A DNA stretch of 59,686 nt from Candidatus Nealsonbacteria bacterium (GCA_030616085.1 JAUWYA010000001.1:74692-134377), one strand, 5' to 3'; positions 20,457-55,803 are shown, counted from the first letter of the stretch. Numbers and translations: made by a program. Notes: generated by a model not told the origin, from the sequence alone.

Positions 20457-20482
20457 AAAAAATTAAAAATTAATCTTGAATT

Positions 20483-20929: not shown

Positions 20930-20932
20930 TCC

Positions 20933-21505: not shown

Positions 21506-21507
21506 AC

Positions 21508-22254: not shown

Positions 22255-22284
22255 TATAAAAATAAATTAATAAAAAATATGGAA

Positions 22285-22364
22285 TCCCGTTAGAAATTCT
22301 GTATTAACAGGTTTTTAATCGGGGTATCATATCCAAATAGAATTTATGAAAATTTCTAACGGGG
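22285..22364. repeat. palindromic element, copy 2 (arms TCCCGTTAGAAATT / AATTTCTAACGGGG)
   Basis: 13 perfect bp plus one T:G position. Arms at 22285-22298 and 22351-22364 with a 52-nt spacer. The right arm overlaps codons 2-7 of the annotated NeuB-like ORF. Confidence 0.75.
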
Positions 22365-23245: not shown

Positions 23246-23247
23246 GT

Positions 23248-25365: not shown

Positions 25366-25372
25366 AGGAAAT

Positions 25373-26803: not shown

Positions 26804-26830
26804 TTAAAGCCTACGAGGCTAGAGAAAAAG

Positions 26831-34081: not shown

Positions 34082-34896
34082 AAATTATTATTAAACCAAA
34101 AAAAGGATTAGCTAATTTAGATTTTAAGGAACTATGGTTATATAGGGAGCTTTTTTACTTTTTTGCCTGGCGGGACATTAAATTGCGCTATAAACAAACT
34201 ATTTTTGGGATTGCCTGGGCAGTGATGAGGCCCTTTATCACTATGGTGGTGTTTACTGTTGTTTTTGGTAAGTTAGCTAATATGCCTTCAGATAATATTC
34301 CTTATCCTATTTTTGTTTATGCCGGGCTTTTACTCTGGAATATTTTTTCAAATTCTCTCAGTGATTCTAGTCAAAGTTTGATGAGGAATATTAATATTAT
34401 TCAAAAAGTTTATGTGCCCAAAATAATTGTACCGACCGCTTCTATTATCGTGAGTTTGGTTGATTTTTTGTTCGCTGCTTTGATTCTTGGAGGAATTCTT
34501 ATTTATTATGATTTTATGCCTCATTTTCAAGGATTACTTCTTTTGCCTCTGCTTTTACCGATAGTTATTTTTGCCAGTTTGGGTTTAGGTTGGTTTTTTG
34601 CTGCTGTTAATGTTAAATATCGCGATGTTCGTTATGCTTTGCCTTTTTTTATTCAATTACTAATATTTGTAACGCCGGTTATTTATCCAGTAAGTATTGT
34701 TCCCCAAAAATATCAATGGATTTTGGCTTTAAATCCAATGACTGGAGTAATAGAGACCTTTAAAGCAGGTTTTTTAGGCACTACTTCAATAAATTGGCTG
34801 ACTTTGGGAATTTCAGCTGTTGTTAGTATTATATTTTTGATTTTTGGTTTATTATATTTTCTTAAAACTGAAAAAACTTTCGCTGACGTAATTTAA
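34078..34896 (+). CDS. wzm: ABC-2 type polysaccharide exporter permease
   Basis: YRELFYFFAWRDIKLRYKQTIFGIAWAVMRP is the typical N-terminal signature of Wzm/TagG/KpsM, with 6 TM segments. Confidence 0.85.
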   Translation: MKIIIKPKKGLANLDFKELWLYRELFYFFAWRDIKLRYKQTIFGIAWAVMRPFITMVVFTVVFGKLANMPSDNIPYPIFVYAGLLLWNIFSNSLSDSSQSLMRNINIIQKVYVPKIIVPTASIIVSLVDFLFAALILGGILIYYDFMPHFQGLLLLPLLLPIVIFASLGLGWFFAAVNVKYRDVRYALPFFIQLLIFVTPVIYPVSIVPQKYQWILALNPMTGVIETFKAGFLGTTSINWLTLGISAVVSIIFLIFGLLYFLKTEKTFADVI

Positions 34897-34898
34897 CG

Positions 34899-36212
34899 AT
34901 GCCAAAATATATGTCAATAATTAAAGTTGAAAATTTATCAAAAAAATATCGGATTTCTCGTCGAAAAAGGAACATAATTTATTCTGCCTCTACTACTATC
35001 CGTGATGAATTAACCGATACTATAAAAAAACCATTCCAATGGTTGTCTGGTCAAAAAACAAGCAAAGAGAATGTCTGGGCTTTAAAAGATATAAATTTTG
35101 AAGTTGAACATGGTGAGATTCTGGGAATCATTGGGTCTAATGGGGCAGGAAAAAGCACTCTTTTGAAAATTTTAACCCGGATTACCCCACCAACTGAGGG
35201 GAAAGCGATTATTAATGGTCAGGTGAGTAGTTTATTAGAAGTAGGAACTGGTTTTCATTCCGAGTTAACCGGCAAGGAAAATATTTATTTTAATGGGGCG
35301 GTTTTAGGAATGAGAAAAAAAGAGATTGAGAGAAAATTTGATGAAATTGTAGAATTTGCTGGAGTCGGGAAATTTTTAAATACTCCAGTTAAACGTTATT
35401 CCAGTGGAATGACTGTAAGATTAGCTTTTTCAGTAGCTGCTCATCTTGAGCCAGATATTTTATTGGTTGATGAGGTTTTATCAATTGGCGATGCTGCTTT
35501 TCAAAAGAAATCTTTTGGCAAAATGGAAGAAGTTACTAAACAAGGTGATAGAACTATTCTTTTTGTCAGTCATAATATGGAAGCAATCCAGGGTTTATGT
35601 AAAAGAACAATATTATTGGATAAAGGAAAAATAATTAAAATTGGTCCAACCGAAGAAATAGTTCGGAGTTATTTAGGTTCCAGCAAGATTTCTCCAGCTG
35701 AGAAAACCTGGGAAAATATTCATCAGGCGCCTGGAGATGATATTATTCGCTTAAAGGCTGTAAGGGTTAAAGATGAGTCAGGTAAGATTTCCGAAAATAT
35801 TGATATTAGAAAACCGGTTTTTATTGAGATAGAATATTGGAATTTAAAACCAGGCCCTCAAAGAGTAACCGGTCTTCATTTTTGTAACGAAAAAGCAGTT
35901 CCTCTCTTTACGTCTTATGATTTGCATAATTTGGACTGGCGCGAAAAAATTCTAAAAACAGGTTTAGTAAAATCAATTTGCAAGATTCCTGGTAATCTTT
36001 TTGCTGAAGGACGTATTTTTGCAAACATTACCGTAAGTACTTACCTTTTTGTTTTGCTTAAGCATGCTAAGGCGCTCAATGCTGTTTCATTTAATGTATT
36101 TGATCCTTTTAGCGGAGACAGCGTGCGTGGAGATTTTAAGGACTCCTGGGCTGGTCTTGTTCGTCCTATGCTTGAATGGGAAAATGTTTTTGAGGAGAAA
36201 GAAATAATATGA
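34899..36212 (+). CDS. wzt: polysaccharide ABC exporter ATP-binding protein with C-terminal extension (Wzt-type)
   Basis: Walker A GSNGAGKST, signature YSSGM, Walker B ILLVDE, plus about 190 extra C-terminal residues, as in Wzt proteins with a glycan-cap-binding domain. Confidence 0.85.
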   Translation: MPKYMSIIKVENLSKKYRISRRKRNIIYSASTTIRDELTDTIKKPFQWLSGQKTSKENVWALKDINFEVEHGEILGIIGSNGAGKSTLLKILTRITPPTEGKAIINGQVSSLLEVGTGFHSELTGKENIYFNGAVLGMRKKEIERKFDEIVEFAGVGKFLNTPVKRYSSGMTVRLAFSVAAHLEPDILLVDEVLSIGDAAFQKKSFGKMEEVTKQGDRTILFVSHNMEAIQGLCKRTILLDKGKIIKIGPTEEIVRSYLGSSKISPAEKTWENIHQAPGDDIIRLKAVRVKDESGKISENIDIRKPVFIEIEYWNLKPGPQRVTGLHFCNEKAVPLFTSYDLHNLDWREKILKTGLVKSICKIPGNLFAEGRIFANITVSTYLFVLLKHAKALNAVSFNVFDPFSGDSVRGDFKDSWAGLVRPMLEWENVFEEKEII

Positions 36213-37033
36213 CTTTAAAAAAATTAAAATTCGGCGTAATTGGCGTAGGAATGGTGGGTGGAGCTTTGAAAAGCTATTTTGAAAAGCAAGATATTAAACC
36301 ATTTTTATACGATAAAGGTAAAAATCTCGGTTCTGTTGAACAAGCAAATCAGGCTGACATTATTTTTATTTGTGTTCCAACTCCATTTTCTCAAGAAAAG
36401 GGTTTTGATTTATCTTTTGTTGAACAGGCCTGCGAAAATATTTCTTCACAAAAAATTATAGTGATTAAGTCAACTGTTTTGCCTGGCACCACAGAGAAAC
36501 TTCAACAAAAATATCCTCAGCATAAATTTCTATTTAATCCTGAGTTTTTAACTGAACTTACTGCTGATCAAGATATGCAGTACCCAGATAGACAGATTAT
36601 TGGCTATACAAAACAAAGCTATAATATAGCAGGAGATGTTTTGCAGATTTTGCCTTTAGCGCCTTTTGAGAAAATAATGCCGGTTACTGAAGCTGAAATG
36701 GTTAAATATTTTGGCAATACTTGGTTTGCAGCTAAAGTTATTTTCGCAAATCAGATGCACGATCTGTGCAAAAAAATCGGAATTGATTATGAAAGAGTGA
36801 TGGAGGCAGTTGCTGTTGATAAAAGGATTGGGAGAACGCATCTTGAGGTTTTTCATAAAAATTATCGTGGATATGGAGGAAAATGCTTAGTAAAAGATAT
36901 TAGAGCTTTGATTCAGTTTGCTAATGACCAGGGCATTGATTTAAAACTTCACAAAATAGTTGAGGAAATTAATAATAAATTAATGCAAGAGCAGGGGATA
37001 GATGACCCAGAAAAATTCTCAAAAAGAAATTAA
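36209..37033 (+). CDS. short UDP-glucose/GDP-mannose dehydrogenase family protein (NAD-binding + central domain only)
   Basis: FGVIGVGMVGGAL Rossmann motif and GYGGKCLVKD (catalytic Cys motif). It ends at 274 aa with no C-terminal sugar-nucleotide-binding domain. Confidence 0.65.
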   Translation: MTLKKLKFGVIGVGMVGGALKSYFEKQDIKPFLYDKGKNLGSVEQANQADIIFICVPTPFSQEKGFDLSFVEQACENISSQKIIVIKSTVLPGTTEKLQQKYPQHKFLFNPEFLTELTADQDMQYPDRQIIGYTKQSYNIAGDVLQILPLAPFEKIMPVTEAEMVKYFGNTWFAAKVIFANQMHDLCKKIGIDYERVMEAVAVDKRIGRTHLEVFHKNYRGYGGKCLVKDIRALIQFANDQGIDLKLHKIVEEINNKLMQEQGIDDPEKFSKRN

Positions 37034-44213: not shown

Positions 44214-44242
44214 TTTACATAAAACATAAATTATGGTATATA
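44214..44242 (+). promoter_or_regulatory. sigma70-like promoter with extended -10, positioned for a leaderless or near-leaderless transcript
   Basis: TTTACA (44214-44219), 17-nt spacer ending in TGG, then TATATA (44237-44242). The ATG of the next gene is at 44250. Confidence 0.45.
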
Positions 44243-44249
44243 AAAATAT

Positions 44250-45482
44250 ATGCGAAAAATCATTTTAGTTGGCACAGGAGATTATTATAAAAATATTGTT
44301 TCTTCCTCTCTAAACATTATGAAAAAAGAGGGATTACTTGAATTGTTTGCTACCTGCAGTAGGGATTTAAAAGATTTAAATAAGCCAGATGTTTTTAGTA
44401 GAATTGAGCATATAGGAAGGAGCGGGCCAGAGAAACTTAGTGTTTTACTTTCTGATTTTAGGAATGAAGAAACCATTGTTCTCTTAAGTCATGCTAATAA
44501 ATTTCATACACCAGATGCAGAAGATTTGGTGAGGAATAATTTTAAGGTAATAGTTGAAAAACCCTATTGTATAAACAAATCTCAATTAGGGACTTTGCAA
44601 AATTTGATAAGTAGTCAACCCGATAAAATTGGCTTATTAGAGTACTATTTAACAATGAAATCAATCCCTCTGCTTATTCTGGCAGGAGAAATTAAGAAAG
44701 ATAGTTTTTATTTCAAAAAAGAAGGATTGTTAAAGAAGTGTAAGGGGTTGCGCTCTTTTGTTGATAATATAACTAAGTTGTCTGGGAGAATAGAAGAATT
44801 TATTGGCAAGCCAAAATTTGTATTGGTGGATCTTTTTGAAGGAGAGGGTCAGACAGGAAGATTAAACCATAGAGGAGCATCTCTCTGCGATCTTAGAAAA
44901 GGCGGGGGAATGATTCAGGATTTGGGCATTCATGCAGTATCTCCTCTTTTTGCCTTGGAGGATTATTTAGGCAATATTGATGAGTCGTTTAAGAAAGGAA
45001 AAGTAAGAATAGCTAAATGTAAAGAATATATTCAGATGGTTAAAAGAAAGTTTGGCTTGCCTAATAACTATATTGGAGAAACCTATGCTGAGATTGAATT
45101 TTCTACCTCAAAAAGTGTGCCAATAAAGGTGTCGGTAGGAAAGTATGTTTTAAATAACAAAAATCAAAGAAAAATGGTTATAATAGGTAGTAAGGGTAAA
45201 GCTTTTCTTGATCTTTCTTCTTGTTCCTTATTCCTTTCAACTAACAATAGACCTGAGATAAAAATAATAGAAATTCCCCAAAAGCCATCTTCTAAGTATT
45301 ATCCTGTTATAAGGGCAGGCTTGGAAGTATTAGAAGGGCATAGTCCTTTTAGCTTTAATGTTAGAGAAACAGCTTTAAGAGCTCAGTTGTTTATTTTAAA
45401 TGTTTTGGAAAAGGCCTATTTAGGAAAAATTAAGATTGGTTTATATAAATCAGGGGTCTTGCCTCAAGATATCTTTAAATAA
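44250..45482 (+). CDS. Gfo/Idh/MocA-like oxidoreductase (divergent)
   Basis: N-terminal ILVGTGDYY Rossmann-like segment and the VIVEKPY (EKP) motif. Confidence 0.55.
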   Translation: MRKIILVGTGDYYKNIVSSSLNIMKKEGLLELFATCSRDLKDLNKPDVFSRIEHIGRSGPEKLSVLLSDFRNEETIVLLSHANKFHTPDAEDLVRNNFKVIVEKPYCINKSQLGTLQNLISSQPDKIGLLEYYLTMKSIPLLILAGEIKKDSFYFKKEGLLKKCKGLRSFVDNITKLSGRIEEFIGKPKFVLVDLFEGEGQTGRLNHRGASLCDLRKGGGMIQDLGIHAVSPLFALEDYLGNIDESFKKGKVRIAKCKEYIQMVKRKFGLPNNYIGETYAEIEFSTSKSVPIKVSVGKYVLNNKNQRKMVIIGSKGKAFLDLSSCSLFLSTNNRPEIKIIEIPQKPSSKYYPVIRAGLEVLEGHSPFSFNVRETALRAQLFILNVLEKAYLGKIKIGLYKSGVLPQDIFK

Positions 45483-45519
45483 AGAAATTATAATATTTTA
45501 AAATTTTATTGAAAATTAT

Positions 45520-46527
45520 ATGAAAAAAATTATTTTCTCAAATTATTTTCATGAATCAGAAATGAGGCCGCGAACTTTGTTTAAGCACTGGAAAGAAATT
45601 CTCAGAGGAGAACTTTCTCTACGTTTTGCTGATAAGAATGATTTTGTGGATATAAATTGTCCAGGATGTGGTAGTAAGGAATTTAACCCAGCATTTATGA
45701 AATTCGGATTTGAATATCAAAGATGCAATGTTTGCGATAGTTTATTTGTTTCTCCTAGGCCAACAGCTCTGGCCCTAAAGAGATTTTATCAAGATTCTCA
45801 GGCAACGAAGTTCTGGAGAGATAAGATATTGAAGGCCTCTATGGATGCCCGCCGCCGTTATCAAGTGTCCCCGCTATACACCTGGTTTTTGGATTTAGTA
45901 AAAGATTATCAGCCCAGAGCTAAATTCGCTATTGATTATAAACCAAAATATTTTAGTTTATTTCTTTATGATAAAGATTTCTATAGGCAACTTGAGAAGA
46001 TTATTTTTGTAGAACCTTTAGCTTTAGAGCAAAATTTTTCGGCTAAGAATATTAAAATAACCAGCGATTTAAAAGAGTTAGAAAATAAAGCTGATGTTTT
46101 TACTGCTTTTGAGGTTTTAGAGAGAGAGTTTGACCCGGCTTATTTTATTAAACAAGTAAGTAGAATTTGCCGTAAGGGGGGATTATTTTTTCTAACTACC
46201 AATACAATTAGCGGTTTTGAATATCAAATACTGGGCAGAAATTCACCCCGACTTGTCCCGCCAGACCGTTTAAATCTTCTCTCTACAGAAGTCATTCATA
46301 AATTTTTAGTCAAAGAAGGGTTTGAAATACTTGATTTGAGTACGCCTGGTAAGTTGGATGTGGAGCTGGTAGTTAACACCTTTAAAGAAAACCCAAACAT
46401 TGAAATGCCTGAGTTTTTGAGATACATGTTTAAATGTCGAGATGGAGATACATGGGAATCTCTTCAAGATTTTCTTCAGTTAAGCCGTCTAAGTTCTTTT
46501 TTGAGAGTTGCCGCTATAAAGAAGTAA
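45520..46527 (+). CDS. Zn-ribbon-containing class I SAM methyltransferase (paralog of 52368-53387)
   Basis: CPGCGSKEF...CNVCDSLFVSPRP, then an MTase core (FEVLERE, GGLFFLTT) and ...LNLLSTE...GFEILDLSTPGKLDV shared with the paralog. Confidence 0.65.
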   Translation: MKKIIFSNYFHESEMRPRTLFKHWKEILRGELSLRFADKNDFVDINCPGCGSKEFNPAFMKFGFEYQRCNVCDSLFVSPRPTALALKRFYQDSQATKFWRDKILKASMDARRRYQVSPLYTWFLDLVKDYQPRAKFAIDYKPKYFSLFLYDKDFYRQLEKIIFVEPLALEQNFSAKNIKITSDLKELENKADVFTAFEVLEREFDPAYFIKQVSRICRKGGLFFLTTNTISGFEYQILGRNSPRLVPPDRLNLLSTEVIHKFLVKEGFEILDLSTPGKLDVELVVNTFKENPNIEMPEFLRYMFKCRDGDTWESLQDFLQLSRLSSFLRVAAIKK

Positions 46528-46530
46528 AAA

Positions 46531-46558
46531 AACAATTAACAATTAACAATTAATAATT
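46531..46558. repeat. heptamer tandem repeat (AACAATT x3 plus degenerate AATAATT) in an intergenic spacer
   Basis: AACAATTAACAATTAACAATTAATAATT lies directly upstream of the SIS gene start at 46565. Confidence 0.8.
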
Positions 46559-46564
46559 ATTAAT

Positions 46565-47185
46565 ATGGCCAAAAGAAATATAAAAAAAATGTATAAAAAA
46601 TCTTCCTGTCCCACAGAATATTTTAGAGAATATTCTAAATATTTTTTTCATTTGCTGGCAAATCTGGACTATAACACCATTGAAAAAATAACCAATGTTA
46701 TTTTAGAAAAATCTAAGCAAGGGAAAACAATATTTTTAATTGGTAACGGCGGAAGCGCTGCCACCGCTTCCCATTTTGTCACTGATCTTTCTCATGGTAT
46801 TTTGTTTAAAAATAAACCTTTAATTAAAGCGGTGAGTTTAGTTGATAACATTCCTTTATTAACCGCTATCAGCAACGATAAAGGATATGAGAAAGTTTTT
46901 ACTGACCAAATTAGAAATTTATTTCGGAAGGAGGACATATTAATGGCAATTTCCGCCAGCGGCAGCTCTCCTAATCTGGTTGAAGCCGTAAACCTTGTTA
47001 AAAAAATGGGTGGTATAACCATTGGCTTGGTAGGGTTTGACGGAGGGAAATTAGCCAAAATTTGCGATTATGTTATTCAGGTTCAAACAGAAAAAGATCA
47101 ATATGGTCCGGTAGAAGATGTCCATATTTTTTTGGGCCATATAATTACTTCTTATTTAGGTTTAAGTTTAAGCAAAAAAAAGTGA
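46565..47185 (+). CDS. SIS-domain sugar-phosphate isomerase (GmhA-like)
   Basis: IFLIGNGGSAATASHFVTDL and AISASGSSPN. Confidence 0.8.
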   Translation: MAKRNIKKMYKKSSCPTEYFREYSKYFFHLLANLDYNTIEKITNVILEKSKQGKTIFLIGNGGSAATASHFVTDLSHGILFKNKPLIKAVSLVDNIPLLTAISNDKGYEKVFTDQIRNLFRKEDILMAISASGSSPNLVEAVNLVKKMGGITIGLVGFDGGKLAKICDYVIQVQTEKDQYGPVEDVHIFLGHIITSYLGLSLSKKK

Positions 47186-47204
47186 ATCTTGTTTTTAAAA
47201 ATCT

Positions 47205-48326
47205 ATGAAAACTCCTAATAAGGTAAAAAAACTTAAAGTTGGCGTTGTTGGGGCTGGTAGAGCAACCAGAGAGCTGACCATACCAGCATTTAATTGTCTG
47301 TCAGATGCAGAGCTTATTGCTATTTGTGATGTAGATTTAGAAACAGCCAAGGGGCTTGTCAAACCTCTTAAAATTTCAGCTTATTCTGGTCTATCAGAAA
47401 TGTTGGATAAAGAAGATCTTCAAGTAGTAATTATTAATACTCCCGTCCAGACTCATACCGATTTAGCAATTGAAGCTATGCGGAAAGGATGCAGTGTGAT
47501 TATTGAGAAACCGGTTGTTGCTCGTCTAGAGGAATTAGAAAAACTTCGGCAGGCGAGGGATGAAACCGGCATGAAGCTGACTGCTGTTCACAATTATAAA
47601 TTTTATCAAGGTCCTCAAAAAGCTTTCCAAATGTATCAGAATGGTCTATTAGGGGAAATTATCCATATAGACAGAATATGGATGACTCCTCCTCAAGAAG
47701 ATAGAATGGAACGTAATTCTAAAGGATGGTGGCATCGCAGTGTTGGAGGTAGATTAGCTGACGCTTTGCCCCACATGCTTTATCTTCCTTATATGTTTGT
47801 AGGACCTATGGAGCTTGTAGCTGTTACTGTCAGAAAGTTAGCCAAAGACCGGCCCTGGTCCTTTTGCGATGAGTCAAATATTGTTCTTCGCACCCCTAAA
47901 GCTTATGTCAATATTCGTCAATCAACCAATCAAGAATCCTGGCCCTATAAAGGCTACATCTACCATACCTTTATTTATGGGACAAAGCTTAGTGCAGCTA
48001 CCAATCATCACGATGCCGAGATTATTTGGAAACATTCTAATCTCAGAGATTTTTTAAGAGGGACGAAGTCAGGAATGAGTCTTTTTAAAAGTCAATTAGT
48101 CAAGATTATTCCTGGATTAGTCAAGATTATTCCTGAAAAAAAGCGAAAAGTAGTTTCTCGGGGAGCCCATAATGTTTTATATGAAAAATTTATTGATTAT
48201 ATTTTAGAAAAAGGTCCAAATCCTGTTCCTTGGGAAGAGATAGTAAATGTGGCCACTCTTACTGAGCAAATTTCAGCTAAAATGCAGGAATGTATAGATA
48301 AAAATAAGAAGGTAATATGTGAATAA
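47205..48326 (+). CDS. Gfo/Idh/MocA family oxidoreductase
   Basis: KVGVVGAGRATREL Rossmann motif and VIIEKPV. Confidence 0.8.
   Translation: MKTPNKVKKLKVGVVGAGRATRELTIPAFNCLSDAELIAICDVDLETAKGLVKPLKISAYSGLSEMLDKEDLQVVIINTPVQTHTDLAIEAMRKGCSVIIEKPVVARLEELEKLRQARDETGMKLTAVHNYKFYQGPQKAFQMYQNGLLGEIIHIDRIWMTPPQEDRMERNSKGWWHRSVGGRLADALPHMLYLPYMFVGPMELVAVTVRKLAKDRPWSFCDESNIVLRTPKAYVNIRQSTNQESWPYKGYIYHTFIYGTKLSAATNHHDAEIIWKHSNLRDFLRGTKSGMSLFKSQLVKIIPGLVKIIPEKKRKVVSRGAHNVLYEKFIDYILEKGPNPVPWEEIVNVATLTEQISAKMQECIDKNKKVICE
48096..48137 (+). repeat. 21-bp tandem duplication inside the oxidoreductase CDS
   Basis: TTAGTCAAGATTATTCCTGGA / TTAGTCAAGATTATTCCTGAA (20 of 21 identical) encodes LVKIIPG-LVKIIPE. 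Confidence 0.9.
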
Positions 48327-48329
48327 AAA

Positions 48330-49214
48330 ATGAAACCAGTAATCTTTTTTAAAAAAATAATTAGAAAATTTTTTCTAAAAAAAGAGAAAAATTTATTATT
48401 GAATTTAAGCAATAATCGTCGGGGACTTACTAGGAATCAATTTCTTTTAAGTCGTCCTTCAACCAGTGAAAATATTTGGAGGAAATTATCAGGATTTTAC
48501 TTGTCACTTTCAAAACCACCGAGGATTCTTGAATATGGTTCTGGAATTTCCACTTTCTATCATTTCGAAAGTCTTAGAAAAAAAAATGGGGGAGAGTTAG
48601 TAAGCGTGGAACACAGCTTGGACTGGTACTATAAGTTGAAAAATTCTTTTCAAGCAATTTATTCTTCAGAAATTCCTGATTTTCAAGAAACTACAAAGAC
48701 AGATATAAATCAAAAAAAGATTAATTGGTCATTTTCTATACCTTTTTCCTTTTCTGAAAATAAAAATAATTTAATATTTCAATATTTATATCGTCCGGCC
48801 CAAGGAAGAACAGGCTGTGGCACTTTTAAAGAGTTTAAAGAATACGTTACTGCTCCTTCAGGAAAATTTGATGTGATTATAATTGACGGAAGAGCCAGAA
48901 AAGCTTGTATTCAATATGTTCTAAAAAACCAATTATTATCTGAAAACGGATTGTTGGTGTTATTTGAGGCTGGGCGTGGTAGCTCATTGTGGCCGAAAAA
49001 AGATCAATTAACTAGTATCTATAATTATCAACCAGAAGTTGACATTTTACTTAAGATGGGGGCAGAATTAGTAGATGGAAATGGATTCGAAAGGTGGGAA
49101 AATTGGATCCCTAATCGACCAAAACATAAATATTTTTCTGATCATTGTCCTGGGGAAGCTTGTTTTTGGTATAAAGAAACTATTAAAAATAATGGGCTAG
49201 AAAAACCAATATGA
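48330..49214 (+). CDS. hypothetical protein, possible class I methyltransferase fold
   Basis: ILEYGSGISTFY (GxGxG-like), an acidic residue after beta2 (VSVEH), and FDVIIIDG. Weak assignment. Confidence 0.4.
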   Translation: MKPVIFFKKIIRKFFLKKEKNLLLNLSNNRRGLTRNQFLLSRPSTSENIWRKLSGFYLSLSKPPRILEYGSGISTFYHFESLRKKNGGELVSVEHSLDWYYKLKNSFQAIYSSEIPDFQETTKTDINQKKINWSFSIPFSFSENKNNLIFQYLYRPAQGRTGCGTFKEFKEYVTAPSGKFDVIIIDGRARKACIQYVLKNQLLSENGLLVLFEAGRGSSLWPKKDQLTSIYNYQPEVDILLKMGAELVDGNGFERWENWIPNRPKHKYFSDHCPGEACFWYKETIKNNGLEKPI

Positions 49215-50134
49215 ATGGGAAAAATAAAATATTAATTACTCCTTCGTCTTTTGGGGAATTAGATTTAGAACCAATAGATGAATTAGTTAAAAATGGTTTT
49301 GAGGTAGTTAAAAATCCTTTTGGAAGAAAAATCACTACCCAGGAATTAAAAGAGCTTTTATTGGGAACTGTTGGTTTAATTGCCGGTTTGGAAACAATAG
49401 ATAGAGAGACCTTAAGAAATTCTACACTCAAAGTTATTTCCCGCTGCGGGGTAGGGATGAGCAATATTGATTTGAAAGCAGCTAAAGAATTGGGAATTAT
49501 TGTTAAAAATACGCCCGATGCTCCGACCATTGCTGTAGCTGAGTTAACTCTTGGAGCTTTACTTGGGTTGTTAAGGATGATACCCCAAATGAGCCAAGAT
49601 TTACATCAAGAAGGGTGGAATAAAAAAATTGGGACTCAACTTTCAGGAAAGAATGTTTTAATAATTGGTTTTGGTAGGATCGGTCGTTATCTAGTCAAAT
49701 TATTAAGACCATTTAATGTAAAATTATTAGCAGTAGACCCTGCCTTATCGGGGATAGTTGATGGTGTTCCAATAGTTTCAATTAAGAGAGCTCTTCCCCA
49801 AGCAGATATAATCTGCCTCCATCTTAGTGGTGCTACTCAAGTTTTAGGGAAAGAGGAATTCTCAAAGGTAAAAAAAGGGGTTTTAATTCTAAATGCAGCG
49901 AGGGGTGGGGTTATTGATGAAGAAGGTTTAGAGGAAGCAATAAAAGAAGAAAAAGTGGCCGGAGTATGGTTAGATGTTTTTGCTGAAGAACCTTATGCTG
50001 GTCCCTTGGTTGATTATCCTCAAGTTTTACTTACCCCTCATGTTGGTTCTTATACCAGAGAGTGCCGGAAGAGAATGGAGATGGAAGCAGTCAGTAATCT
50101 ACTCTCTGCTCTCAGGCAAAATGCAAATGAATAA
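49211..50134 (+). CDS. D-isomer-specific 2-hydroxyacid dehydrogenase (PGDH-like)
   Basis: GKNVLIIGFGRIGRYL, ARGGVIDE, LTPHVGSYT. Confidence 0.85.
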   Translation: MNGKNKILITPSSFGELDLEPIDELVKNGFEVVKNPFGRKITTQELKELLLGTVGLIAGLETIDRETLRNSTLKVISRCGVGMSNIDLKAAKELGIIVKNTPDAPTIAVAELTLGALLGLLRMIPQMSQDLHQEGWNKKIGTQLSGKNVLIIGFGRIGRYLVKLLRPFNVKLLAVDPALSGIVDGVPIVSIKRALPQADIICLHLSGATQVLGKEEFSKVKKGVLILNAARGGVIDEEGLEEAIKEEKVAGVWLDVFAEEPYAGPLVDYPQVLLTPHVGSYTRECRKRMEMEAVSNLLSALRQNANE

Positions 50135-50164
50135 GAAAAATTTAAATCAATATCTTTCATTTTG

Positions 50165-51574
50165 ATGAACATTCTATTTTTAAATTCAAGTGTTAATATT
50201 GCTAAAAATACATGGTGGCATCACGGTTTGGGTTGTCTTGTTGCTATTCTCAAAGATAATGGATTCAAGGTAGAAGTAACAACCTTATTTTCTGAAAAAG
50301 AACATCTCAAGGTTTTTTCAAAAATAGAATCTTTCCAGCCAAAAATTATTGGCTTTAGCTCTGTTGCTTCTCAATTCAAGTTTATTAAAAGTTTATCGTT
50401 GGAGATTAAAAAAAAATTCCCTCATCTAATTGTTGTTTGTGGCGGCGTTCATCCAACTATCTTTCCTGATTGTTTAAAAGAAGCACCAGGATTAGATGGT
50501 ATTTTCCGCGGAGAATCAGAGTTTGCTTTTTTAGAGCTTGCCATCAGAGTTAAAGAAGGAAAACCCTTTCATGATATTTCTAATTTCGCCTATTTAAACG
50601 ATGCCGAAGAATTGGTTTTAAACCCTCTTCGTCCTCTTATTGAGAATCTTGATATGCTACCTTTTTCCGACAGGGAAGCATTTAATTATGAGGAAATTTT
50701 AAAATCAACTAAAGGTAGAACTCGATTTATCTTCAACCGTGGCTGTCCTTATTCCTGTACCTATTGCTGTAATCATGCTTTGGCTAAAGTTTACGGGTTA
50801 AAGATTATGAAGCCCCGCTTCAGAAGTCCCGAATTGTCGGTTAAAGAAATAATGCGTGTTTTAAAAAAATATAAAGTTAAAAACATTTTTATCATTGATG
50901 AAATATTTGGATTAAATAGAGAATGGTTATTAGAATTTTGTGCTTTGTATAAAAAATATATTAAGTTACCTTTTGAGTGTTTCCAGCGGGCTAATTTTGT
51001 TGATGAGGAGAAATTAATAAGATTGAAAGACGCTGGTTGTTTCTCGGTTGCTTTTGGAGTTGAATCTGGTAGTGATTTTATTCGCAATAAAATTATGAAT
51101 CGACAAATGACAAGAGAGCAGATAATTTCTGCTTTTAGACTTTGTCATAGATTAGGATTAAAAACAGTAGCCTCCAATATTATCGGCTTGCCTTTTGAAA
51201 CAAAAGAGATGATTTTTGAAACAATTAAACTGAATCGAGAGATATTGCCTCATAGTAGCATCGTTGGAATTTTCTATCCTTATCCTGGAACAGAGTTGGA
51301 AAAATTATGCCGAGAGAAAAACTTAATAAATGAGGAAAAACTTAATGACCCTAATTTTGTAGAAAGGAAAAGAGGGTCGGTATTGAATTTAGAAATTCCT
51401 GACGGGGAGCTAGATTGGTTTAGAAAAAATTGGTATAGATTAATTTATCGAAACCCAAATACTATGTTCCTACATCCCAAAAGATTGATTCTTGGAGAAG
51501 GATATAAGGGGCTAAGAAGAGCGGCCAGAAAGGTCCCTTTTATATATAATATATACCAAAATATAAAATATTAG
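50165..51574 (+). CDS. B12-binding-domain radical SAM enzyme (third copy in the window)
   Basis: N-terminal ILFLNS...HHGLGCLVAILKDNG and NRGCPYSCTYCCN. The ATG at 50165 is preferred over the TTG at 50162. Confidence 0.8.
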   Translation: MNILFLNSSVNIAKNTWWHHGLGCLVAILKDNGFKVEVTTLFSEKEHLKVFSKIESFQPKIIGFSSVASQFKFIKSLSLEIKKKFPHLIVVCGGVHPTIFPDCLKEAPGLDGIFRGESEFAFLELAIRVKEGKPFHDISNFAYLNDAEELVLNPLRPLIENLDMLPFSDREAFNYEEILKSTKGRTRFIFNRGCPYSCTYCCNHALAKVYGLKIMKPRFRSPELSVKEIMRVLKKYKVKNIFIIDEIFGLNREWLLEFCALYKKYIKLPFECFQRANFVDEEKLIRLKDAGCFSVAFGVESGSDFIRNKIMNRQMTREQIISAFRLCHRLGLKTVASNIIGLPFETKEMIFETIKLNREILPHSSIVGIFYPYPGTELEKLCREKNLINEEKLNDPNFVERKRGSVLNLEIPDGELDWFRKNWYRLIYRNPNTMFLHPKRLILGEGYKGLRRAARKVPFIYNIYQNIKY

Positions 51575-51592
51575 ACTGAAGAATTAAAAAAA

Positions 51593-52363
51593 ATGCAAAA
51601 CCCAATAAAAAAGAAATTAAAAGAAGGAAAAGCTTCAATTGGCAGCTGGCTTCAATTACCTTCTCCAACTATTGCTGAAATTATGGCAAAAAGCGGTTTT
51701 GAATGGCTGGTTATAGATATGGAACACTCAACTATTGGTATTCAGGATATTGAGAATTTGGTTCGGGCTATTGAAGGAGCGGGCTCCGTTCCTTTAGTTC
51801 GGCTTTGGAGTAATGACCCGGTTTTAGCAAAAAAAGTAATGGATGCTGGAGCTTACGGAGTAATTGTACCGATGATAAATACAGCTCAGGAGGCAGAAAG
51901 AGCAGTAAAGTCAGTGAAATATCCACCTGAGGGTAAAAGGGGAGTGGGTCTTTATCGAGCCCAGGGTTTCGGGACTGATTTTGAAGAATATAAAAAAACT
52001 GTAAATAGAGAAAGTTTAGTGATTGTTATGATTGAGCACAAAAAGGCAGTGGAAAATATTCGGGATATCCTTTCAGTAGAAGGTGTTGATGGGTTGCTAA
52101 TTGGCCCCTATGATATGTCGGGCTCTTTTGGAGTGCCCGGTCAATTAGACCATCCCTTAGTAAAAGAGGCTCAAAAAAAAGTATTAGTGGTAGCTAAAAA
52201 TTTAGGGGTAGCTGCTGGAATACATGTGGTTCATCCTTCTTTAGAAGAAGTTAAAGCAAGAATTGAAGAGGGTTTTAGATTTATTGCTTTTAGCACCGAC
52301 GCTATATTACTTAATACCAGCTGTCGAGAAATAATCTCGAAATTGAATGGATTAAGCAAATAA
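51593..52363 (+). CDS. HpcH/HpaI-family class II (pyruvate) aldolase
   Basis: GSWLQLPSPTIAEIMAKSGFEWLVIDMEHS, VRL..ND, VPMINTAQEAE, IGPYDMS. Confidence 0.85.
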   Translation: MQNPIKKKLKEGKASIGSWLQLPSPTIAEIMAKSGFEWLVIDMEHSTIGIQDIENLVRAIEGAGSVPLVRLWSNDPVLAKKVMDAGAYGVIVPMINTAQEAERAVKSVKYPPEGKRGVGLYRAQGFGTDFEEYKKTVNRESLVIVMIEHKKAVENIRDILSVEGVDGLLIGPYDMSGSFGVPGQLDHPLVKEAQKKVLVVAKNLGVAAGIHVVHPSLEEVKARIEEGFRFIAFSTDAILLNTSCREIISKLNGLSK

Positions 52364-52367
52364 TTTT

Positions 52368-53387
52368 ATGAAAGAAGAAGAAATTCGGCCTAAAAATCTT
52401 CACGATACTATTATTGAGCTTTCTCGTCAAGATGTAGAAAGACTTATTTTGCCTGAGAAGAACAAGTTAGAAGAGATAGCTTGTCCGGGATGTGGTAGCA
52501 AAAATTCAACTTTTCAGTTCAAAAAATTTGGCCTGGATTATGTTTTATGCCAGGATTGTTATTCTCTATATTTGTCTCCCAGACCAAAAGAATCTTTTTT
52601 AAATCAAATTTACCCGAAAATGAAATCTGTTCAATATTGGGAGGCCCACTTTTATAAAGAAACTGCTGAACCAAGAAGAGAAAAAATATATGTTCCCAGA
52701 GCCAAAAAGGTTGTTGATCTAATTAACCAATATAAGGTTCCGGATAAAGAGGTATTAATAGATATTGGTTCCGGTTTTGGTATTTTTCTTGAGGAATTAA
52801 GAAAAGTATCTGATTTCAAGAAACTAATCGCTACTGAACCAACTTTATCTTTGGCTAAAGTTTGTGAAAGTAAGGGATTAGACGTTATTAAAAAACTAGG
52901 CCGAGACCTGTCTCTTTCTGATATTTCAAAAAAAGCTTCGGTGATCACTTGTTTTGAGGTATTAGAACATATAGTTGACCCTTTAAAATTTTTAACTGTT
53001 TTAAGCAAGATTTTAAAACCAGGGGGATTATTAATTTTAACTGCCCCTAGTGTTAGCGGAATAGATGTCCAGCTGCTTTGGGAAAAATCAAAAACAGTTT
53101 ATCCGCCTCATCACATTAATTTACTATCGGTTGAGGGAGTGAAAGAGCTTATAGGGAGAGTAAATGGTTTAGAACTTTTGGATATCTCTACCCCTGGAGC
53201 GCTGGATGTAGATATTATCCGAAATGCCAAAAGAGAAGGAGTCATTGAAAATTTGGGCAAGTTCTTTGATTACCTTTTTTCACGAGAGGACGAGAATCTT
53301 TTTGAAAATTTACAACAGTTTTGTCAAAAACATGACTTAAGCTCTCATTTAATGGTCGTAATTAAAAAAATAATAATTAATAATTAA
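52368..53387 (+). CDS. Zn-ribbon-containing class I SAM methyltransferase (paralog of 45520-46527)
   Basis: CPGCGSKNS...CQDCYSLYLSPRP, LIDIGSGFGIF, FEVLEHI, GGLLILTA, INLLSVEG...LELLDISTPGALDV. Confidence 0.75.
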   Translation: MKEEEIRPKNLHDTIIELSRQDVERLILPEKNKLEEIACPGCGSKNSTFQFKKFGLDYVLCQDCYSLYLSPRPKESFLNQIYPKMKSVQYWEAHFYKETAEPRREKIYVPRAKKVVDLINQYKVPDKEVLIDIGSGFGIFLEELRKVSDFKKLIATEPTLSLAKVCESKGLDVIKKLGRDLSLSDISKKASVITCFEVLEHIVDPLKFLTVLSKILKPGGLLILTAPSVSGIDVQLLWEKSKTVYPPHHINLLSVEGVKELIGRVNGLELLDISTPGALDVDIIRNAKREGVIENLGKFFDYLFSREDENLFENLQQFCQKHDLSSHLMVVIKKIIINN

Positions 53388-53394
53388 CCAGTTT

Positions 53395-54162
53395 ATGAAT
53401 ATTATTAGTATTATTCCAGCTCGAATGGCTTCTACTCGCTTCCCTGGAAAATCGTTAGCAAAAATTCAGGGTCTCTCCATGGTTGGCCATGTTTATTTTA
53501 GGAGCAAGATGGCTGAGTTGTTAAACGGGGTTTATGTGGCCACGCCTGATAAAGAAATTTCAGATTATATTAAATCAATTGGGGGAAATTCAATTATGAC
53601 CAAATTTACCCATCGGTCTGCCCCTGACCGAACAGCAGAAGCAATGGCAAAAATAGAAAAAAGATTCAAGAAAAAAATAGATATTGTAGTAATGGTTCAG
53701 GGAGATGAGCCAATGGTCAGGCCCGAGATGATTGATGAGACAGTAAAACCGATGATAGAGGATAAATCCATTCAGATTTCTAACCTCGGGGCCCCAATTA
53801 CTAACCGCCAAGAACACAACGACTCAAATGTAGTAAAAGTGGTGGTGGACAAAAATAACTTCGCTCTCTATTTTTCCAGAGAGCCCATTCCTTCTTTTAA
53901 AAAGGGGGCAAGAGAAGTGCCGATGCTAAAACAGACCGGTATTATCGCCTTTAGGAGAGATTTCTTGATTAAGTTCAATAATATGCCACCAACTCCCTTG
54001 GAACTCATTGAATCGGTAGATATGTTGAGGTTGCTTGAGAATGGCTTCAAAGTAAAAATGATCTTTTCAGATTATCCTCTCTTCAGCGTTGATACTAAAG
54101 AAGATTTAGGATTTGTTGAAAAAAAGATGGCAAAGGATGATTTAATAAAATCTTATTTATGA
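53395..54162 (+). CDS. KdsB-like 3-deoxy-ulosonate cytidylyltransferase
   Basis: IISIIPARMASTRFPGKSLAKIQGLSMVGHV and VMVQGDEP match the KdsB/CMP-Kdo synthetase signature. Confidence 0.8.
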   Translation: MNIISIIPARMASTRFPGKSLAKIQGLSMVGHVYFRSKMAELLNGVYVATPDKEISDYIKSIGGNSIMTKFTHRSAPDRTAEAMAKIEKRFKKKIDIVVMVQGDEPMVRPEMIDETVKPMIEDKSIQISNLGAPITNRQEHNDSNVVKVVVDKNNFALYFSREPIPSFKKGAREVPMLKQTGIIAFRRDFLIKFNNMPPTPLELIESVDMLRLLENGFKVKMIFSDYPLFSVDTKEDLGFVEKKMAKDDLIKSYL

Positions 54163-55760
54163 TAGTTAAAATAAGTCAAAAAAGAGAAAACCAGATATTT
54201 ATATATGACGAAGAAGATAATTTGTTGAAAAGTTTTGAAATAAAAGAAAATCTTCAGAGGGCTCTCGAATTTTTAAAACAACTCAACTCTGTTAAAACCA
54301 CTGACGGCGTTCCTATCTACAAGACAAAAATGTTTAAGGGGATATCGGTTTGGTCATTTCATCAGCACGTCTTATTTTTGAATTTCTTGCGAGGTTATGT
54401 CAAATACGAAGAAATTATAAAATTTTTGATTGAAAATAAAGTTGAAAAGGTAATTGTTGATGGTAACAACGAAAATCTCAAAGAATATTTAAAGATAAAT
54501 AAGATTGAAGTGAATAACGATTCTGGTAGAGCTCGGAAAGTGCGCTTTTTTTTAATTTCTTCTTTTATGAAAATGACTGCCTTGATAATTACTTTTTTGG
54601 CATTTTTAAAAATTTTGCTTCATAAAACCCCCCTCTTAATTTATACCCCGGATAAATTTTCAAAAAAGCACAACTGTGATTTCAGATTTTACCCTGTTTA
54701 TCAATATCTGAAAGAAAGAAAAATTCCTTACATTGAAATATTTCACACTCTCTTAAATCGTGAATTTTTTAAAAACATTATAAGCCGAAAACGTTTAGCT
54801 ATCTATTTAGAAGTTTTCCCTGTTTTTTCGAGTAAAAAGTGGAAGAGCAGGGAATATAATTTATCTCTTTTTGAACCACATAATCAAAGATATTTTCAGT
54901 ATCTTCTGAGAATAATAGACCTAAAGTCTCAAAAGAGCATTAGACAGATAGATGCGATATCCTGGCTTCTAAAATTTACTAAAATAAAAAAACTCCTAGC
55001 TATAGATGATGTTAGATATACCAACGAGCTTATTGTTGCCTGTAAGTTAAATAAGATAAAAACTTATGGATTTCAGCACGGCCAGTTTACTAAATATCAT
55101 GTAGGTTGGATGAATTATAATATTCCAAAAGAGGTGTCAATTACTTTTGATAAATTATTTGTTTGGAATAAATATTGGAAAAAAGTATTGTTTTCTTATA
55201 GTACTCAGTATAATGAAGAAAATATAGAAATTAGCGGATTATTACGAGAGCTAAAACCGATAGAATATAAAAAAAAGGAATTTAAAATTGGAAGAATGTC
55301 TGAGTTAAAGATCTTAGTGCCCTATGAAACCTTCGCCCCAAAAGCAGAAGTTAAAGATTATTTAAATAGGCTTTCGAGCTTAGGTGTTAAAATCTTTTTC
55401 AAGCCCAGGCCTGATATTCCATATAATCAACAGCTCGCGGAATATGATTTTCAAGAAGGAAAAGGCATTGAATTTGCTGAAAAAATTAACGCAGATATTT
55501 TATTAGAAATAGACGTCGTTGGAGGCACTTACAGCACTTTTTTAAACGAAATGATTTTTTATGAAAAACCATTATTTATTTTTGAAACATCGTTTGACCA
55601 GGGACACCGGTTGATAGAAGACAACTTAGGATTTTTAATAAAAAAAGATTTTAACCCTTCGATTTTACTGGATTACATAAATAATTATCAAAGTAAAAAA
55701 AATCAGGCCTGGCCGTCTGTTCAAACAAGCATAGAAGAAACCCTGGACAGTCTTAACTAA
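54159..55760 (+). CDS. hypothetical protein, putative glycosyl/ulosonyl transferase (paralog of 26831-28141)
   Basis: Shared QHG...VW.KYW block with the 26831 protein. One internal hydrophobic segment. It directly follows the cytidylyltransferase with an ATGA overlap. Confidence 0.4.
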   Translation: MIVKISQKRENQIFIYDEEDNLLKSFEIKENLQRALEFLKQLNSVKTTDGVPIYKTKMFKGISVWSFHQHVLFLNFLRGYVKYEEIIKFLIENKVEKVIVDGNNENLKEYLKINKIEVNNDSGRARKVRFFLISSFMKMTALIITFLAFLKILLHKTPLLIYTPDKFSKKHNCDFRFYPVYQYLKERKIPYIEIFHTLLNREFFKNIISRKRLAIYLEVFPVFSSKKWKSREYNLSLFEPHNQRYFQYLLRIIDLKSQKSIRQIDAISWLLKFTKIKKLLAIDDVRYTNELIVACKLNKIKTYGFQHGQFTKYHVGWMNYNIPKEVSITFDKLFVWNKYWKKVLFSYSTQYNEENIEISGLLRELKPIEYKKKEFKIGRMSELKILVPYETFAPKAEVKDYLNRLSSLGVKIFFKPRPDIPYNQQLAEYDFQEGKGIEFAEKINADILLEIDVVGGTYSTFLNEMIFYEKPLFIFETSFDQGHRLIEDNLGFLIKKDFNPSILLDYINNYQSKKNQAWPSVQTSIEETLDSLN

Positions 55761-55803
55761 GGATTTTAGAAAATGAAGATTATCTATAATTAGCAATATT
55801 AGA

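Follow-up and report, generated by a model that had tools for sequence, protein, structure and literature searches.

A conserved gene cassette coupling an HpcH-family aldolase to a KdsB-type cytidylyltransferase in surface-glycan loci, and its possible role in a phosphoenolpyruvate-independent route to CMP-activated ulosonic acids

The window analyzed here is a 59,686-nucleotide stretch of a Candidatus Nealsonbacteria genome (GCA_030616085.1, JAUWYA010000001.1:74692-134377), with positions counted from its first letter. At 44250-55760 on the + strand it carries a block of 11 open reading frames (ORFs) that includes a class II HpcH/HpaI-family aldolase, a phosphoglycerate dehydrogenase (PGDH)-like dehydrogenase and a KdsB-like cytidylyltransferase. 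It is firmly established that a conserved, widespread and uncharacterised cassette couples this aldolase clade, the PGDH-like dehydrogenase and a KdsB/PseF-type cytidylyltransferase in surface-glycan loci, and that it is complementary to KdsA. To our knowledge, every characterised route to a CMP-activated keto-sugar acid (3-deoxy-D-manno-octulosonate (Kdo), the sialic, legionaminic and pseudaminic acids, and Kdn) uses a KdsA/NeuB-type synthase that depends on phosphoenolpyruvate (PEP). The balance of the evidence tips modestly toward the block being one form of a widespread cassette by which a methylated 2-ulosonic acid is made, activated with CMP and transferred, all without such a synthase. 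The ORFs, found by an ORF scan and annotated with Pfam and NCBIfam unless otherwise stated, are the following (E, E value; aa, amino acids; SAM, S-adenosylmethionine).

44250-45482, +, divergent Gfo/Idh/MocA-type NAD(P) oxidoreductase, 410 aa (GxGxxG at the N-terminus, VEKPY motif)
45520-46527, +, SAM methyltransferase with an N-terminal zinc ribbon, 335 aa (Methyltransf_23, E 3e-6; CPGCGS...CNVCDS)
46565-47185, +, GmhA-like SIS sugar-phosphate isomerase, 206 aa (SIS_2, E 6e-20)
47205-48326, +, Gfo/Idh/MocA oxidoreductase, 373 aa (PF01408, E 7.9e-26)
48330-49214, +, putative methyltransferase-fold protein, 294 aa (Methyltransf_24, E 4.6e-4, below the gathering score)
49211-50134, +, D-2-hydroxyacid dehydrogenase resembling PGDH and glyoxylate/hydroxypyruvate reductase, 307 aa (2-Hacid_dh_C, E 2e-41)
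50162-51574, +, B12-binding radical SAM (B12-rSAM) enzyme, 470 aa, TTG start (PF02310, 56.5 bits; PF04055, 88.5 bits)
51593-52363, +, class II (metal-dependent) HpcH/HpaI-family 2-oxoacid aldolase, 256 aa (PF03328, E 5.6e-39)
52368-53387, +, second zinc-ribbon SAM methyltransferase, 339 aa (Methyltransf_23, E 8e-15; CPGCGS...CQDCYS)
53395-54162, +, KdsB-like CMP-ulosonate cytidylyltransferase, 255 aa (CTP_transf_3, E 2e-44)
54159-55760, +, putative glycosyltransferase of GT-B fold and unnamed family, 533 aa (AlphaFold (AF2) model and Foldseek)

An earlier, sequence-only reading of this DNA had described 11 co-directional ORFs without KdsA or NeuB among them. All 11 were found at the positions it gave, spaced by -4 to 37 bp, and the Pfam and NCBIfam matches bore out the gene identities that it listed. 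The E. coli KdsA sequence had no match anywhere in the window (phmmer), and the sole NeuB lies at 22346-23245.

The aldolase matches PF03328 with 134 bits (cut-off 25) over profile positions 2-216 of 221, and its PDB matches have E values of 1e-38 to 1e-48. H45, R70, E148 and D174 align with the catalytic and metal-binding residues His45, Arg70, Glu149 and Asp175 of HpaI (4b5s) and are invariant among 48 clade members. The protein scores below the NCBIfam equivalog cut-offs for HpaI (206 vs. 369), GarL (186 vs. 407) and RhmA (172 vs. 441). The sequence-only reading had called for a phylogenetic placement; in a neighbour-joining tree, the window aldolase and the 85 context-positive aldolases of a first scan formed a single 86-leaf clade; outside it fell HpaI (4b5s), the GarL and RhmA of E. 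coli, and 26 homologs that have no such gene neighbourhood. Distances from the clade to HpaI, GarL and RhmA were 0.63-0.67, when compared to ≤0.52 within it, and the clade-invariant Y173, S178 and H211 stand where HpaI has A, D and L. Homologs at 54-77% identity are plentiful in metagenomes, and an exact-match lookup of the window sequence returned no record. A sugar-acid catabolic operon was considered and rejected: the block has no transporter, kinase or dehydratase, and its context is biosynthetic.

Loci were fetched with two aldolase profiles from species-representative genomes (80 + 80), all their ORFs were clustered, and 144 non-redundant loci were retained; neighbourhoods comprise ~10 kb on either side of each anchor gene. 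The sequence-only reading had suggested an analysis of how often the aldolase and cytidylyltransferase genes co-occur, and the two are indeed linked: a CTP_transf_3 protein of any kind accompanied the clade aldolase in 135 of the 144 loci, and a KdsB-like one in 111. Other frequent neighbours were a 2-Hacid_dh protein (115/144), a HAD or inositol-phosphate-type phosphatase (97/144) and an extended short-chain dehydrogenase/reductase (SDR; 95/144). Gfo/Idh/MocA (34/144), SIS (27/144), NeuB (24/144) and the optional B12-rSAM (20/144) were less common, and no KdsA homolog was present in any of the 144 loci. Within the first set of 85 loci, 53 had at least 6 kb on both flanks; 51 of these 53 contained a cytidylyltransferase, and NeuB was absent from 38. 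As a negative control, 29 distant aldolase homologs from a GTDB genome scan (≤47-48% identity) were inspected, and none of the partner genes was found near them.

Linkage of aldolase, cytidylyltransferase and dehydrogenase extended over >100 loci from about 20 phyla and two domains. The bacterial hosts include Dehalococcoidia, Omnitrophota, Planctomycetota, Desulfobacterota, Nitrospirota, Acidobacteriota and Patescibacteria, and the archaeal ones Methanoregula, Methanoperedens, Thermoplasmatales, Hadarchaeia, Woesearchaeota and Micrarchaeota. Among the hosts, Methanoregula, Methanoperedens, Hadarchaeia, Patescibacteria, Dehalococcoidia and Syntrophomonas are not known to make lipopolysaccharide (LPS). 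Cultured hosts are Nitrosomonas, Nitrosospira and Nitrosovibrio strains and Syntrophomonas wolfei subsp. methylbutyratica. In the cultured ammonia oxidisers (Nitrosospira briensis, N. multiformis, Nitrosomonas marina, N. mobilis, N. halophila and Nitrosovibrio spp.) the cassette is a five-gene operon, with KdsB-like cytidylyltransferase, aldolase, 2-hydroxyacid dehydrogenase, SDR and HAD phosphatase genes in this order, located around position 10001 of loci L135, L136, L146, L149, L155, L160, L166, L170, L171, L173 and L181. Beside it, on the opposite strand, lie genes for a GT-B-like protein, an FkbM methyltransferase and a GT2 glycosyltransferase. These Gram-negative nitrifiers are expected to have the kdsA/kdsB pair for LPS, and the KdsB of their cassette would be a second KdsB-type gene.

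The cytidylyltransferase passes three KdsB cut-offs (NF009905, 293.6 > 255; TIGR00466, 163 > 155.2; NF003952, 268.6 > 193), and its best PDB matches are KpsU and KdsB, although neither the window nor any aldolase locus contains the KdsA partner expected of a KdsB. In many related loci the cassette enzyme is PseF-like rather than KdsB-like. In a reciprocal test, a profile of the cassette KdsB-like proteins yielded 78 loci, which were ranked by similarity to the window enzyme. Among the 18 nearest, the aldolase or an adjacent 2-Hacid_dh gene was present in 15 and KdsA in 2; in the remaining 60 the corresponding numbers were 6 and 38 (Fisher p = 7.6e-9 and 1e-4 for the two contrasts). In these 60 loci KdsA was mostly the next gene or one away, as for LPS-type Kdo genes, and in none of the 78 loci did aldolase and KdsA occur together. 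One would expect this pattern if, for a distinct KdsB subgroup, the aldolase cassette stood in for KdsA as a non-orthologous alternative. Hence the idea that the aldolase takes the genomic place of KdsA beside KdsB is borne out, and a dedicated KdsA or NeuB, which would have spoken against it, was not found within the inspected flanks.

The dehydrogenase is similar to human PHGDH, its best PDB match, with the catalytic Arg (ARGG) and His (PHVG) aligned, but it reaches only 208.5 bits against the PGDH equivalog model TIGR01327 (cut-off 454). Relative to the phosphate-binding residues of PHGDH, R54 is replaced by Gly, R75 is kept and R135 is replaced by Lys, a mixed picture as to 3-phosphoglycerate as the substrate. 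Orthologs in aldolase loci across phyla are 46-74% identical to the window enzyme. Being the steadiest partner of the aldolase apart from the cytidylyltransferase fits a supply of a special 2-oxoacid donor, for example hydroxypyruvate, which would lead to a 3-hydroxy sugar acid. NCBIfam holds no specific model for the block aldolase, the dehydrogenase or the GT-B protein.

The 533-aa product of the last gene has no Pfam match and no sequence match in the PDB. Its AF2 model, built from 53 homologs, is of high confidence (pLDDT 93.2, pTM 0.90) and has two Rossmann-like domains with a cleft between them. Foldseek matched it with GT-B glycosyltransferases and UDP-GlcNAc 2-epimerases at E values down to 3e-9 but TM-scores of only 0.4-0.5, the top matches being CalG4, CalG2, BshA, MurG and UDP-GlcNAc 2-epimerases (probability 1.00). 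The model thus agrees with the earlier assignment of a transferase to this position. By hhalign, the family is related to large unannotated proteins flanking the cassette in other phyla (U600a, 97.9%; c55, 93.7%; c35, 85%). Iterative hidden Markov model searches with the 410-, 533- and 436-aa proteins (the last from the NeuB-based module of the window; 26831-28141) reached nothing past L030 within the fetched loci, and the homologs came from large databases. No similarity to a named family was detected when GT30, the KpsS/C-like GT99/107 and GT38/52/80 were considered (Pfam, PDB sequences and the Capsule_synth protein of the window). The simplest reading is that the protein represents a new GT-B family dedicated to these CMP-sugars. 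A KpsS/C-like beta-Kdo transferase was rejected, given that the protein has no similarity to the Capsule_synth protein. The sequence-only reading had both sugar-acid modules of the window end in paralogs of one transferase family, and this held in part: the 436-aa protein matches the family (probability 86%, E 5e-6) over the C-terminal 168 columns only, and the NeuB-based module runs on to a KpsS/C-like gene unrelated to the 533-aa protein. Separately, GT9 (heptosyltransferase-family) genes lie near 533-aa homologs in L193 (154-1317) and L194 (2300-3448), on contigs that are probably from Patescibacteria as judged by named homologs. GT9 enzymes are usually tied to LPS cores.

Two main architectures were observed. 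The minimal form, by far the commonest, consists of cytidylyltransferase, aldolase, dehydrogenase, SDR and HAD genes and has no SIS or Gfo/Idh/MocA gene; the extended form, to which the window cassette belongs, has SIS, Gfo/Idh/MocA and an inositol-phosphate-type phosphatase. Another Nealsonbacteria locus, L030, carries genes for a Gfo/Idh/MocA-like protein, a methyltransferase, SIS, two radical SAM enzymes, the dehydrogenase, an inositol-phosphate-type phosphatase, aldolase, methyltransferase, cytidylyltransferase and a 537-aa protein of unknown type. L122 has a Gfo/Idh/MocA-like protein, a methyltransferase, SIS, an MT24-like protein, a B12-rSAM, a radical SAM enzyme, the dehydrogenase, a phosphatase, aldolase, cytidylyltransferase and a 530-aa homolog of the last gene. 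The order Gfo/Idh/MocA-like (A), methyltransferase (B), SIS, ..., dehydrogenase, phosphatase, aldolase, (methyltransferase), cytidylyltransferase, transferase is thus conserved in both. The phosphatase present in most relatives is of the inositol-monophosphatase or HAD_2 type and usually adjoins the dehydrogenase; in the window, the B12-rSAM gene stands between dehydrogenase and aldolase, with no phosphatase. In 12 loci a dehydroquinate synthase (DHQS)-like gene and an SDR gene fill the phosphatase slot, as a comparison of L054 with L055 illustrates (examples: L054, 6779-7549 and the next gene; L084, 13480-14592). With a score of 439 against a cut-off of 400, the DHQS-like enzyme passes TIGR04425 (AroB-related putative sugar phosphate phospholyase). 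A phosphatase is absent from all 12 loci, when ~8 would be expected to have one under independence. Because the pair and the phosphatase never co-occur, the intermediate is likely to be a sugar phosphate that loses its phosphate by hydrolysis or by elimination, and the replacement hints at deoxy variants of the sugar.

The 410-aa protein itself has no Pfam match, but its homologs (35-69% identity) match PF01408/PF22725 and are named Gfo/Idh/MocA; with VEKPY present as well, the earlier label of an EKP-motif oxidoreductase was correct. This family is syntenic in L030, L122 and L193, and it is fused to SIS in P0205, P0209, P0211 and P0218 (~612 aa), to CTP_transf_3 in P0213 (612 aa) and to a Methyltransf_23 domain in P0227 (717 aa). 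The SIS protein has phosphoheptose isomerases (GmhA) as its best PDB matches (~100 bits), although it stays under the gmhA cut-off (TIGR00441, 110.5 vs. 209.45 bits); with 20.5 bits against kpsF (TIGR00393, cut-off 203.7) and no CBS domain, it is not of the KdsD/KpsF type. SIS and Gfo/Idh/MocA occur together in 22 related loci, and all matches of the 373-aa Gfo/Idh/MocA protein to sugar dehydrogenases are sub-threshold. The zinc-ribbon methyltransferase family occurs in 38 of 85 related loci, and the two members in the block share 35% identity. The 294-aa protein, with a shorter homolog in L122, is the weakest assignment of the block. The B12-rSAM has the CxxxCxxC motif of B12-dependent radical SAM enzymes (CPYSCTYC at residue 195) and reaches no NCBIfam equivalog or specific subfamily.

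How might these proteins act together? In the proposed route, the GmhA-like SIS protein would convert a ketose phosphate to an aldose phosphate, which the two Gfo/Idh/MocA oxidoreductases would then adjust. In most relatives the phosphate would be removed by the phosphatase or, through elimination, by the DHQS-like phospholyase and its SDR. The PGDH-like dehydrogenase would supply or regenerate the 2-oxoacid, the best guess being hydroxypyruvate made from D-glycerate or 3-phosphoglycerate, and the aldolase would join pyruvate or hydroxypyruvate to the aldose, forming the C3-C4 bond of the ulosonic acid, a step for which KdsA and NeuB use PEP elsewhere. The two zinc-ribbon methyltransferases, the third methyltransferase-like protein and the B12-rSAM would account for O- and C-methylation of the sugar. 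The KdsB-like enzyme would yield the CMP-sugar, and the GT-B-fold protein would add the sugar to the glycan whose assembly is encoded in the ABC-transporter-type locus around the block. The sugar may range from C6 to C10 and may be 3-deoxy or 3-hydroxy. In vitro, aldolases of the HpcH family can use hydroxypyruvate as the nucleophile and polyhydroxy aldehydes as the electrophiles (PMC7610986). We give slightly better than even chances to the aldolase building the carbon skeleton of the CMP-activated sugar acid.

The logic of this route is that of the Kdo pathway (KdsD, KdsA, KdsC and KdsB): both comprise a SIS isomerase, condensation with a keto-acid unit of three carbons and a KdsB-type enzyme, and most relatives of the cassette have a phosphatase as well. 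In contrast to that pathway, the cassette has a class II HpcH aldolase in the place of KdsA, the two being mutually exclusive beside KdsB; its SIS protein is GmhA-like rather than KdsD/KpsF-like, its phosphatases are not KdsC, and it adds a PGDH-like dehydrogenase, oxidoreductases, methyltransferases and a B12-rSAM and is also present in organisms devoid of LPS. Like the nonulosonic acid and Kdn pathways (NeuB, LegI, PseI or Kdn-9-P synthase, with NeuA, LegF or PseF), it has a CTP_transf_3 enzyme followed by a dedicated transferase at its end and resides in surface-glycan loci, but the block lacks NeuB, nucleoside diphosphate-sugar dehydratase, aminotransferase, acetyltransferase and hydrolysing 2-epimerase. 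The aldolase shares the PF03328 fold family and the catalytic and metal residues with the catabolic HpaI, GarL and RhmA/YfaU and with the promiscuous hydroxyketoacid aldolase SwHKA, from which its separate clade and biosynthetic context (cytidylyltransferase, glycosyltransferase and methyltransferases) set it apart. In SwHKA, Phe210 is the residue tied to the use of hydroxypyruvate. The dehydrogenase has the fold (2-Hacid_dh) of SerA (PGDH) and the glyoxylate/hydroxypyruvate reductases, with both catalytic residues (Arg and His) aligned, and the SerA-SerB pairing resembles the dehydrogenase-then-phosphatase order of cassette relatives. Unlike SerA, the block enzyme has no regulatory (ACT/ASB) domains, is short of one phosphate-binding Arg and belongs to a glycan cassette.

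Several observations weigh against an aldolase-built skeleton. L121, with full 10-kb flanks, has no aldolase gene; its cytidylyltransferase and its GT-B protein both share 63% identity with their window counterparts, and it also encodes a 2-Hacid_dh protein. L193, also with full 10-kb flanks, has the order dehydrogenase, A, B, SIS, inositol-phosphate-type phosphatase, cytidylyltransferase and transferase (A, Gfo/Idh/MocA-like; B, methyltransferase), again without aldolase. L204 and L214 are likewise aldolase-less, with KdsB, the dehydrogenase and a fusion of GT2 with a Zn-dependent alcohol dehydrogenase (Zn-ADH). Since a cytidylyltransferase, a dehydrogenase and a member of the same transferase family all persist in such variants, the aldolase is not proven to be indispensable, and the earlier proposal of an aldolase route to a CMP-ulosonic acid therefore stands as regards the conserved unit, the cytidylyltransferase linkage and the place of KdsA, but is weakened by these loci. 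The dehydrogenase, rather than the aldolase, may create the keto acid; its constancy also fits a 2-keto group made by oxidation. Its role in the aldolase route is a rationalisation, and one phosphate-binding Arg of PGDH is absent. Every characterised HpcH aldolase whose physiological role is known serves catabolism (PMC7610986). The window contains no phosphatase, cyclase or DHQS-like gene at E ≤ 0.01, whereas most relatives carry a phosphatase. Moreover, KdsA, NeuB or aldolase genes may lie beyond the ~10-kb flanks in these genomes, and neither the cassette nor an HpcH aldolase linked to a cytidylyltransferase was found described in full-text literature searches, nitrifiers and archaea included.

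The aldolase-less variants, together with a 600-aa CTP_transf_3::2-Hacid_dh fusion in L202 (10766-12565), mark the dehydrogenase-cytidylyltransferase pair as the tightest core of the cassette, which makes an oxidative route a serious rival, although we regard it as fairly unlikely. Here an aldose provided by SIS and phosphatase would be oxidised at C1 to an aldonic acid by a Gfo/Idh/MocA protein or Zn-ADH, and then at C2 to a 2-keto-aldonic acid by the 2-hydroxyacid dehydrogenase; alternatively, direct oxidation would act on a phospho-aldonate such as 6-phosphogluconate. That would leave the aldolase an accessory part, such as epimerisation at C3 via enolisation, branching or skeleton exchange. 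For loci without this aldolase, oxidation of aldose to aldonate and 2-keto-aldonate is apparently the most plausible supply of the 2-keto acid. The pair is kept without aldolase in L121, L193, L201, L202, L204, L205 and L214, and in aldolase-less loci either GT2 is fused with a glucose-dehydrogenase-like Zn-ADH (PF16912) or the Gfo/Idh/MocA-like protein A is present. The 2-ketoaldonate reductases are members of the 2-hydroxyacid dehydrogenase family, and the block enzyme has weak matches to GhrB; the Gfo/Idh/MocA family includes aldose 1-dehydrogenases, with a weak match to the xylose 1-dehydrogenase Gfo6. Oxidation, however, leaves no role for the most specific marker, the aldolase clade with its cytidylyltransferase linkage, and the minimal cassette, that of the cultured nitrifiers included, has no aldose dehydrogenase. 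Furthermore, the L121 and L193 dehydrogenases are only 32% and 40% identical to that of the window, well outside the range of the orthologs, and may use other substrates; certain seemingly aldolase-less contigs, such as L214, stop near the cassette. Hydroxypyruvate as the donor supplied by the dehydrogenase is favoured because the minimal form has no aldose dehydrogenase, because every conserved gene then gets a role and because the L121 and L193 enzymes are so much more divergent. It would give a 3-hydroxy (Ko-like) product, the same chemical class that the aldolase-less cassettes would make.

An improbable alternative is that the KdsB-like enzyme activates ordinary Kdo, or a known ulosonic acid made by KdsA or NeuB elsewhere, while the aldolase, dehydrogenase and phosphatase make a non-sugar substituent (glyceroyl, lactyl or a hydroxy-oxo-acid) or serve catabolism or salvage. 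The enzyme does pass the NCBI thresholds for KdsB, NeuB is encoded in the window 29 kb upstream, known HpcH aldolases are catabolic (PMC7610986), and the inspection spanned ±10 kb per gene. Yet KdsA is rare near this KdsB subgroup (2/18 vs. 38/60 for others), in 38 of the 53 loci with full flanks a cytidylyltransferase stands without NeuB, the NeuB of the window has a cytidylyltransferase of its own (17433-19388), and nothing in the block is a transporter, kinase or dehydratase of the catabolic type. The cassette is also found in archaea, candidate phyla radiation (CPR) bacteria, Dehalococcoidia and Firmicutes, in which Kdo of the LPS type is not expected. Chance juxtaposition of unrelated sugar-modifying genes in a mosaic glycan locus might be suspected, since the 60 kb around the block are pieced together from glycosyltransferase and tailoring genes and the middle of the block (Gfo/Idh/MocA, methyltransferase-like and radical SAM genes) varies among relatives. 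Contrary to this suspicion, which the sequence-only reading had also raised, the genes are syntenic in relatives, and linkage in >100 loci, conserved order and fusions refute it for the core genes; we consider it hardly credible overall.

A recurrent and unusual glycosyltransferase-dehydrogenase fusion was observed beside KdsB-like and 2-Hacid_dh genes in aldolase-less cassettes: a GT2 domain joined to a Zn-dependent alcohol/glucose dehydrogenase, 620-670 aa, in L121 (7207-9072; glucose-dehydrogenase-like, PF16912), L204 (2903-4858) and L214 (3952-5967).

Nearly all of the window is one glycan locus, with a G+C content of ~30%, Wzm/Wzt ABC transporter genes, many GT4 genes and the NeuB-based module. 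The best named homologs of the block proteins are from Patescibacteria and Nealsonbacteria, which makes a CPR bacterium the probable source. The promoter that had been assigned to the block at 44214 (TTTACA-17-TATATA) is not supported: it was missing from a promoter scan, promoter-like sites in the region were near the shuffle level (50 vs. 44.3 ± 7.5 expected), and the same-strand gene array extends beyond the block at both ends. No Shine-Dalgarno sequence was recognisable in the 15-nt stretches 5′ of the start codons of the module (44235-55803), all of which are A/T-rich. Features outside the block and the NeuB-based module are listed below.

3082-9043 (within), 598-aa thiamine pyrophosphate-dependent enzyme and HAD (Hydrolase_6) phosphatase
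5706-6491, very divergent second HpcH-like protein (PF03328, 34 bits only; no BLAST relation to the block aldolase)
6469-7695, TylC3-like C-methyltransferase
7991-9043, radical SAM-SPASM protein
32672-34081, PMT-like membrane protein
34078-36212, Wzm/Wzt-type ABC transporter genes
36209-37033, UDP-glucose/GDP-mannose dehydrogenase-like ORF, 274 aa
42601-44178, methyltransferase::GT4 fusion, 525 aa, directly 5′ of the block

The methyltransferase::GT4 fusion, the Wzm/Wzt genes and the PMT-like protein suggest an ABC-transporter-dependent glycan with methylated residues. In the ORF at 36209-37033 the C-terminal domain is missing altogether, as are ~70 positions at the start of the N-terminal domain profile. 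The gene may be truncated or decayed. The genes at 3082-9043 form a third sugar-tailoring set, which may make a branched-chain sugar.

The NeuB-based module (15380-29652) contains the following genes.

17433-19388, cytidylyltransferase::class-III aminotransferase fusion
21508-22254, SDR
22346-23245, NeuB
23248-25365, SIS::B12-rSAM fusion
25373-26803, second B12-rSAM
26831-28141, GT-B-like protein, 436 aa
28138-29652, KpsS/C-like Capsule_synth protein

The window thus has two cytidylyltransferases for one NeuB and one aldolase, and the NeuB-based module carries paralogous SIS, B12-rSAM and GT-B-like genes. The block SIS protein is 33% identical to the SIS domain of the fusion, and the block B12-rSAM is 28% identical to each of the two B12-rSAMs of this module. 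The presence of two B12-rSAMs beside NeuB hints at a nonulosonic acid with C-methylation and an extended chain. For Magnetospirillum, a 2026 preprint (10.64898/2026.04.20.719630) reports C10 ulosonic acids that are CMP-activated and unexplained.

In its widest form the proposal is tentative, and we place it somewhat below an even chance: (i) a third, PEP-independent route, widespread in bacteria and archaea, would use the aldolase and hydroxypyruvate or pyruvate to make new 3-hydroxy or higher-carbon, O- and C-methylated ulosonic acids; and (ii) these would be handled by a distinct KdsB subgroup and a new GT-B family. The hypothesis is directly testable, because the cassette is present in cultured Nitrosomonas, Nitrosospira and Syntrophomonas strains. 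If true, the automatic names KdsB, 'glucarate aldolase' and 'phosphoglycerate dehydrogenase' would need correcting in these loci, a new glycosyltransferase family would be defined, and a PEP-free and thermodynamically different enzyme set would be available for ulosonic acid synthesis. Biosynthesis would then follow a new logic, and CPR bacteria, methanogens, Dehalococcoidia and ammonia oxidisers would probably carry surface sugars of a new class.

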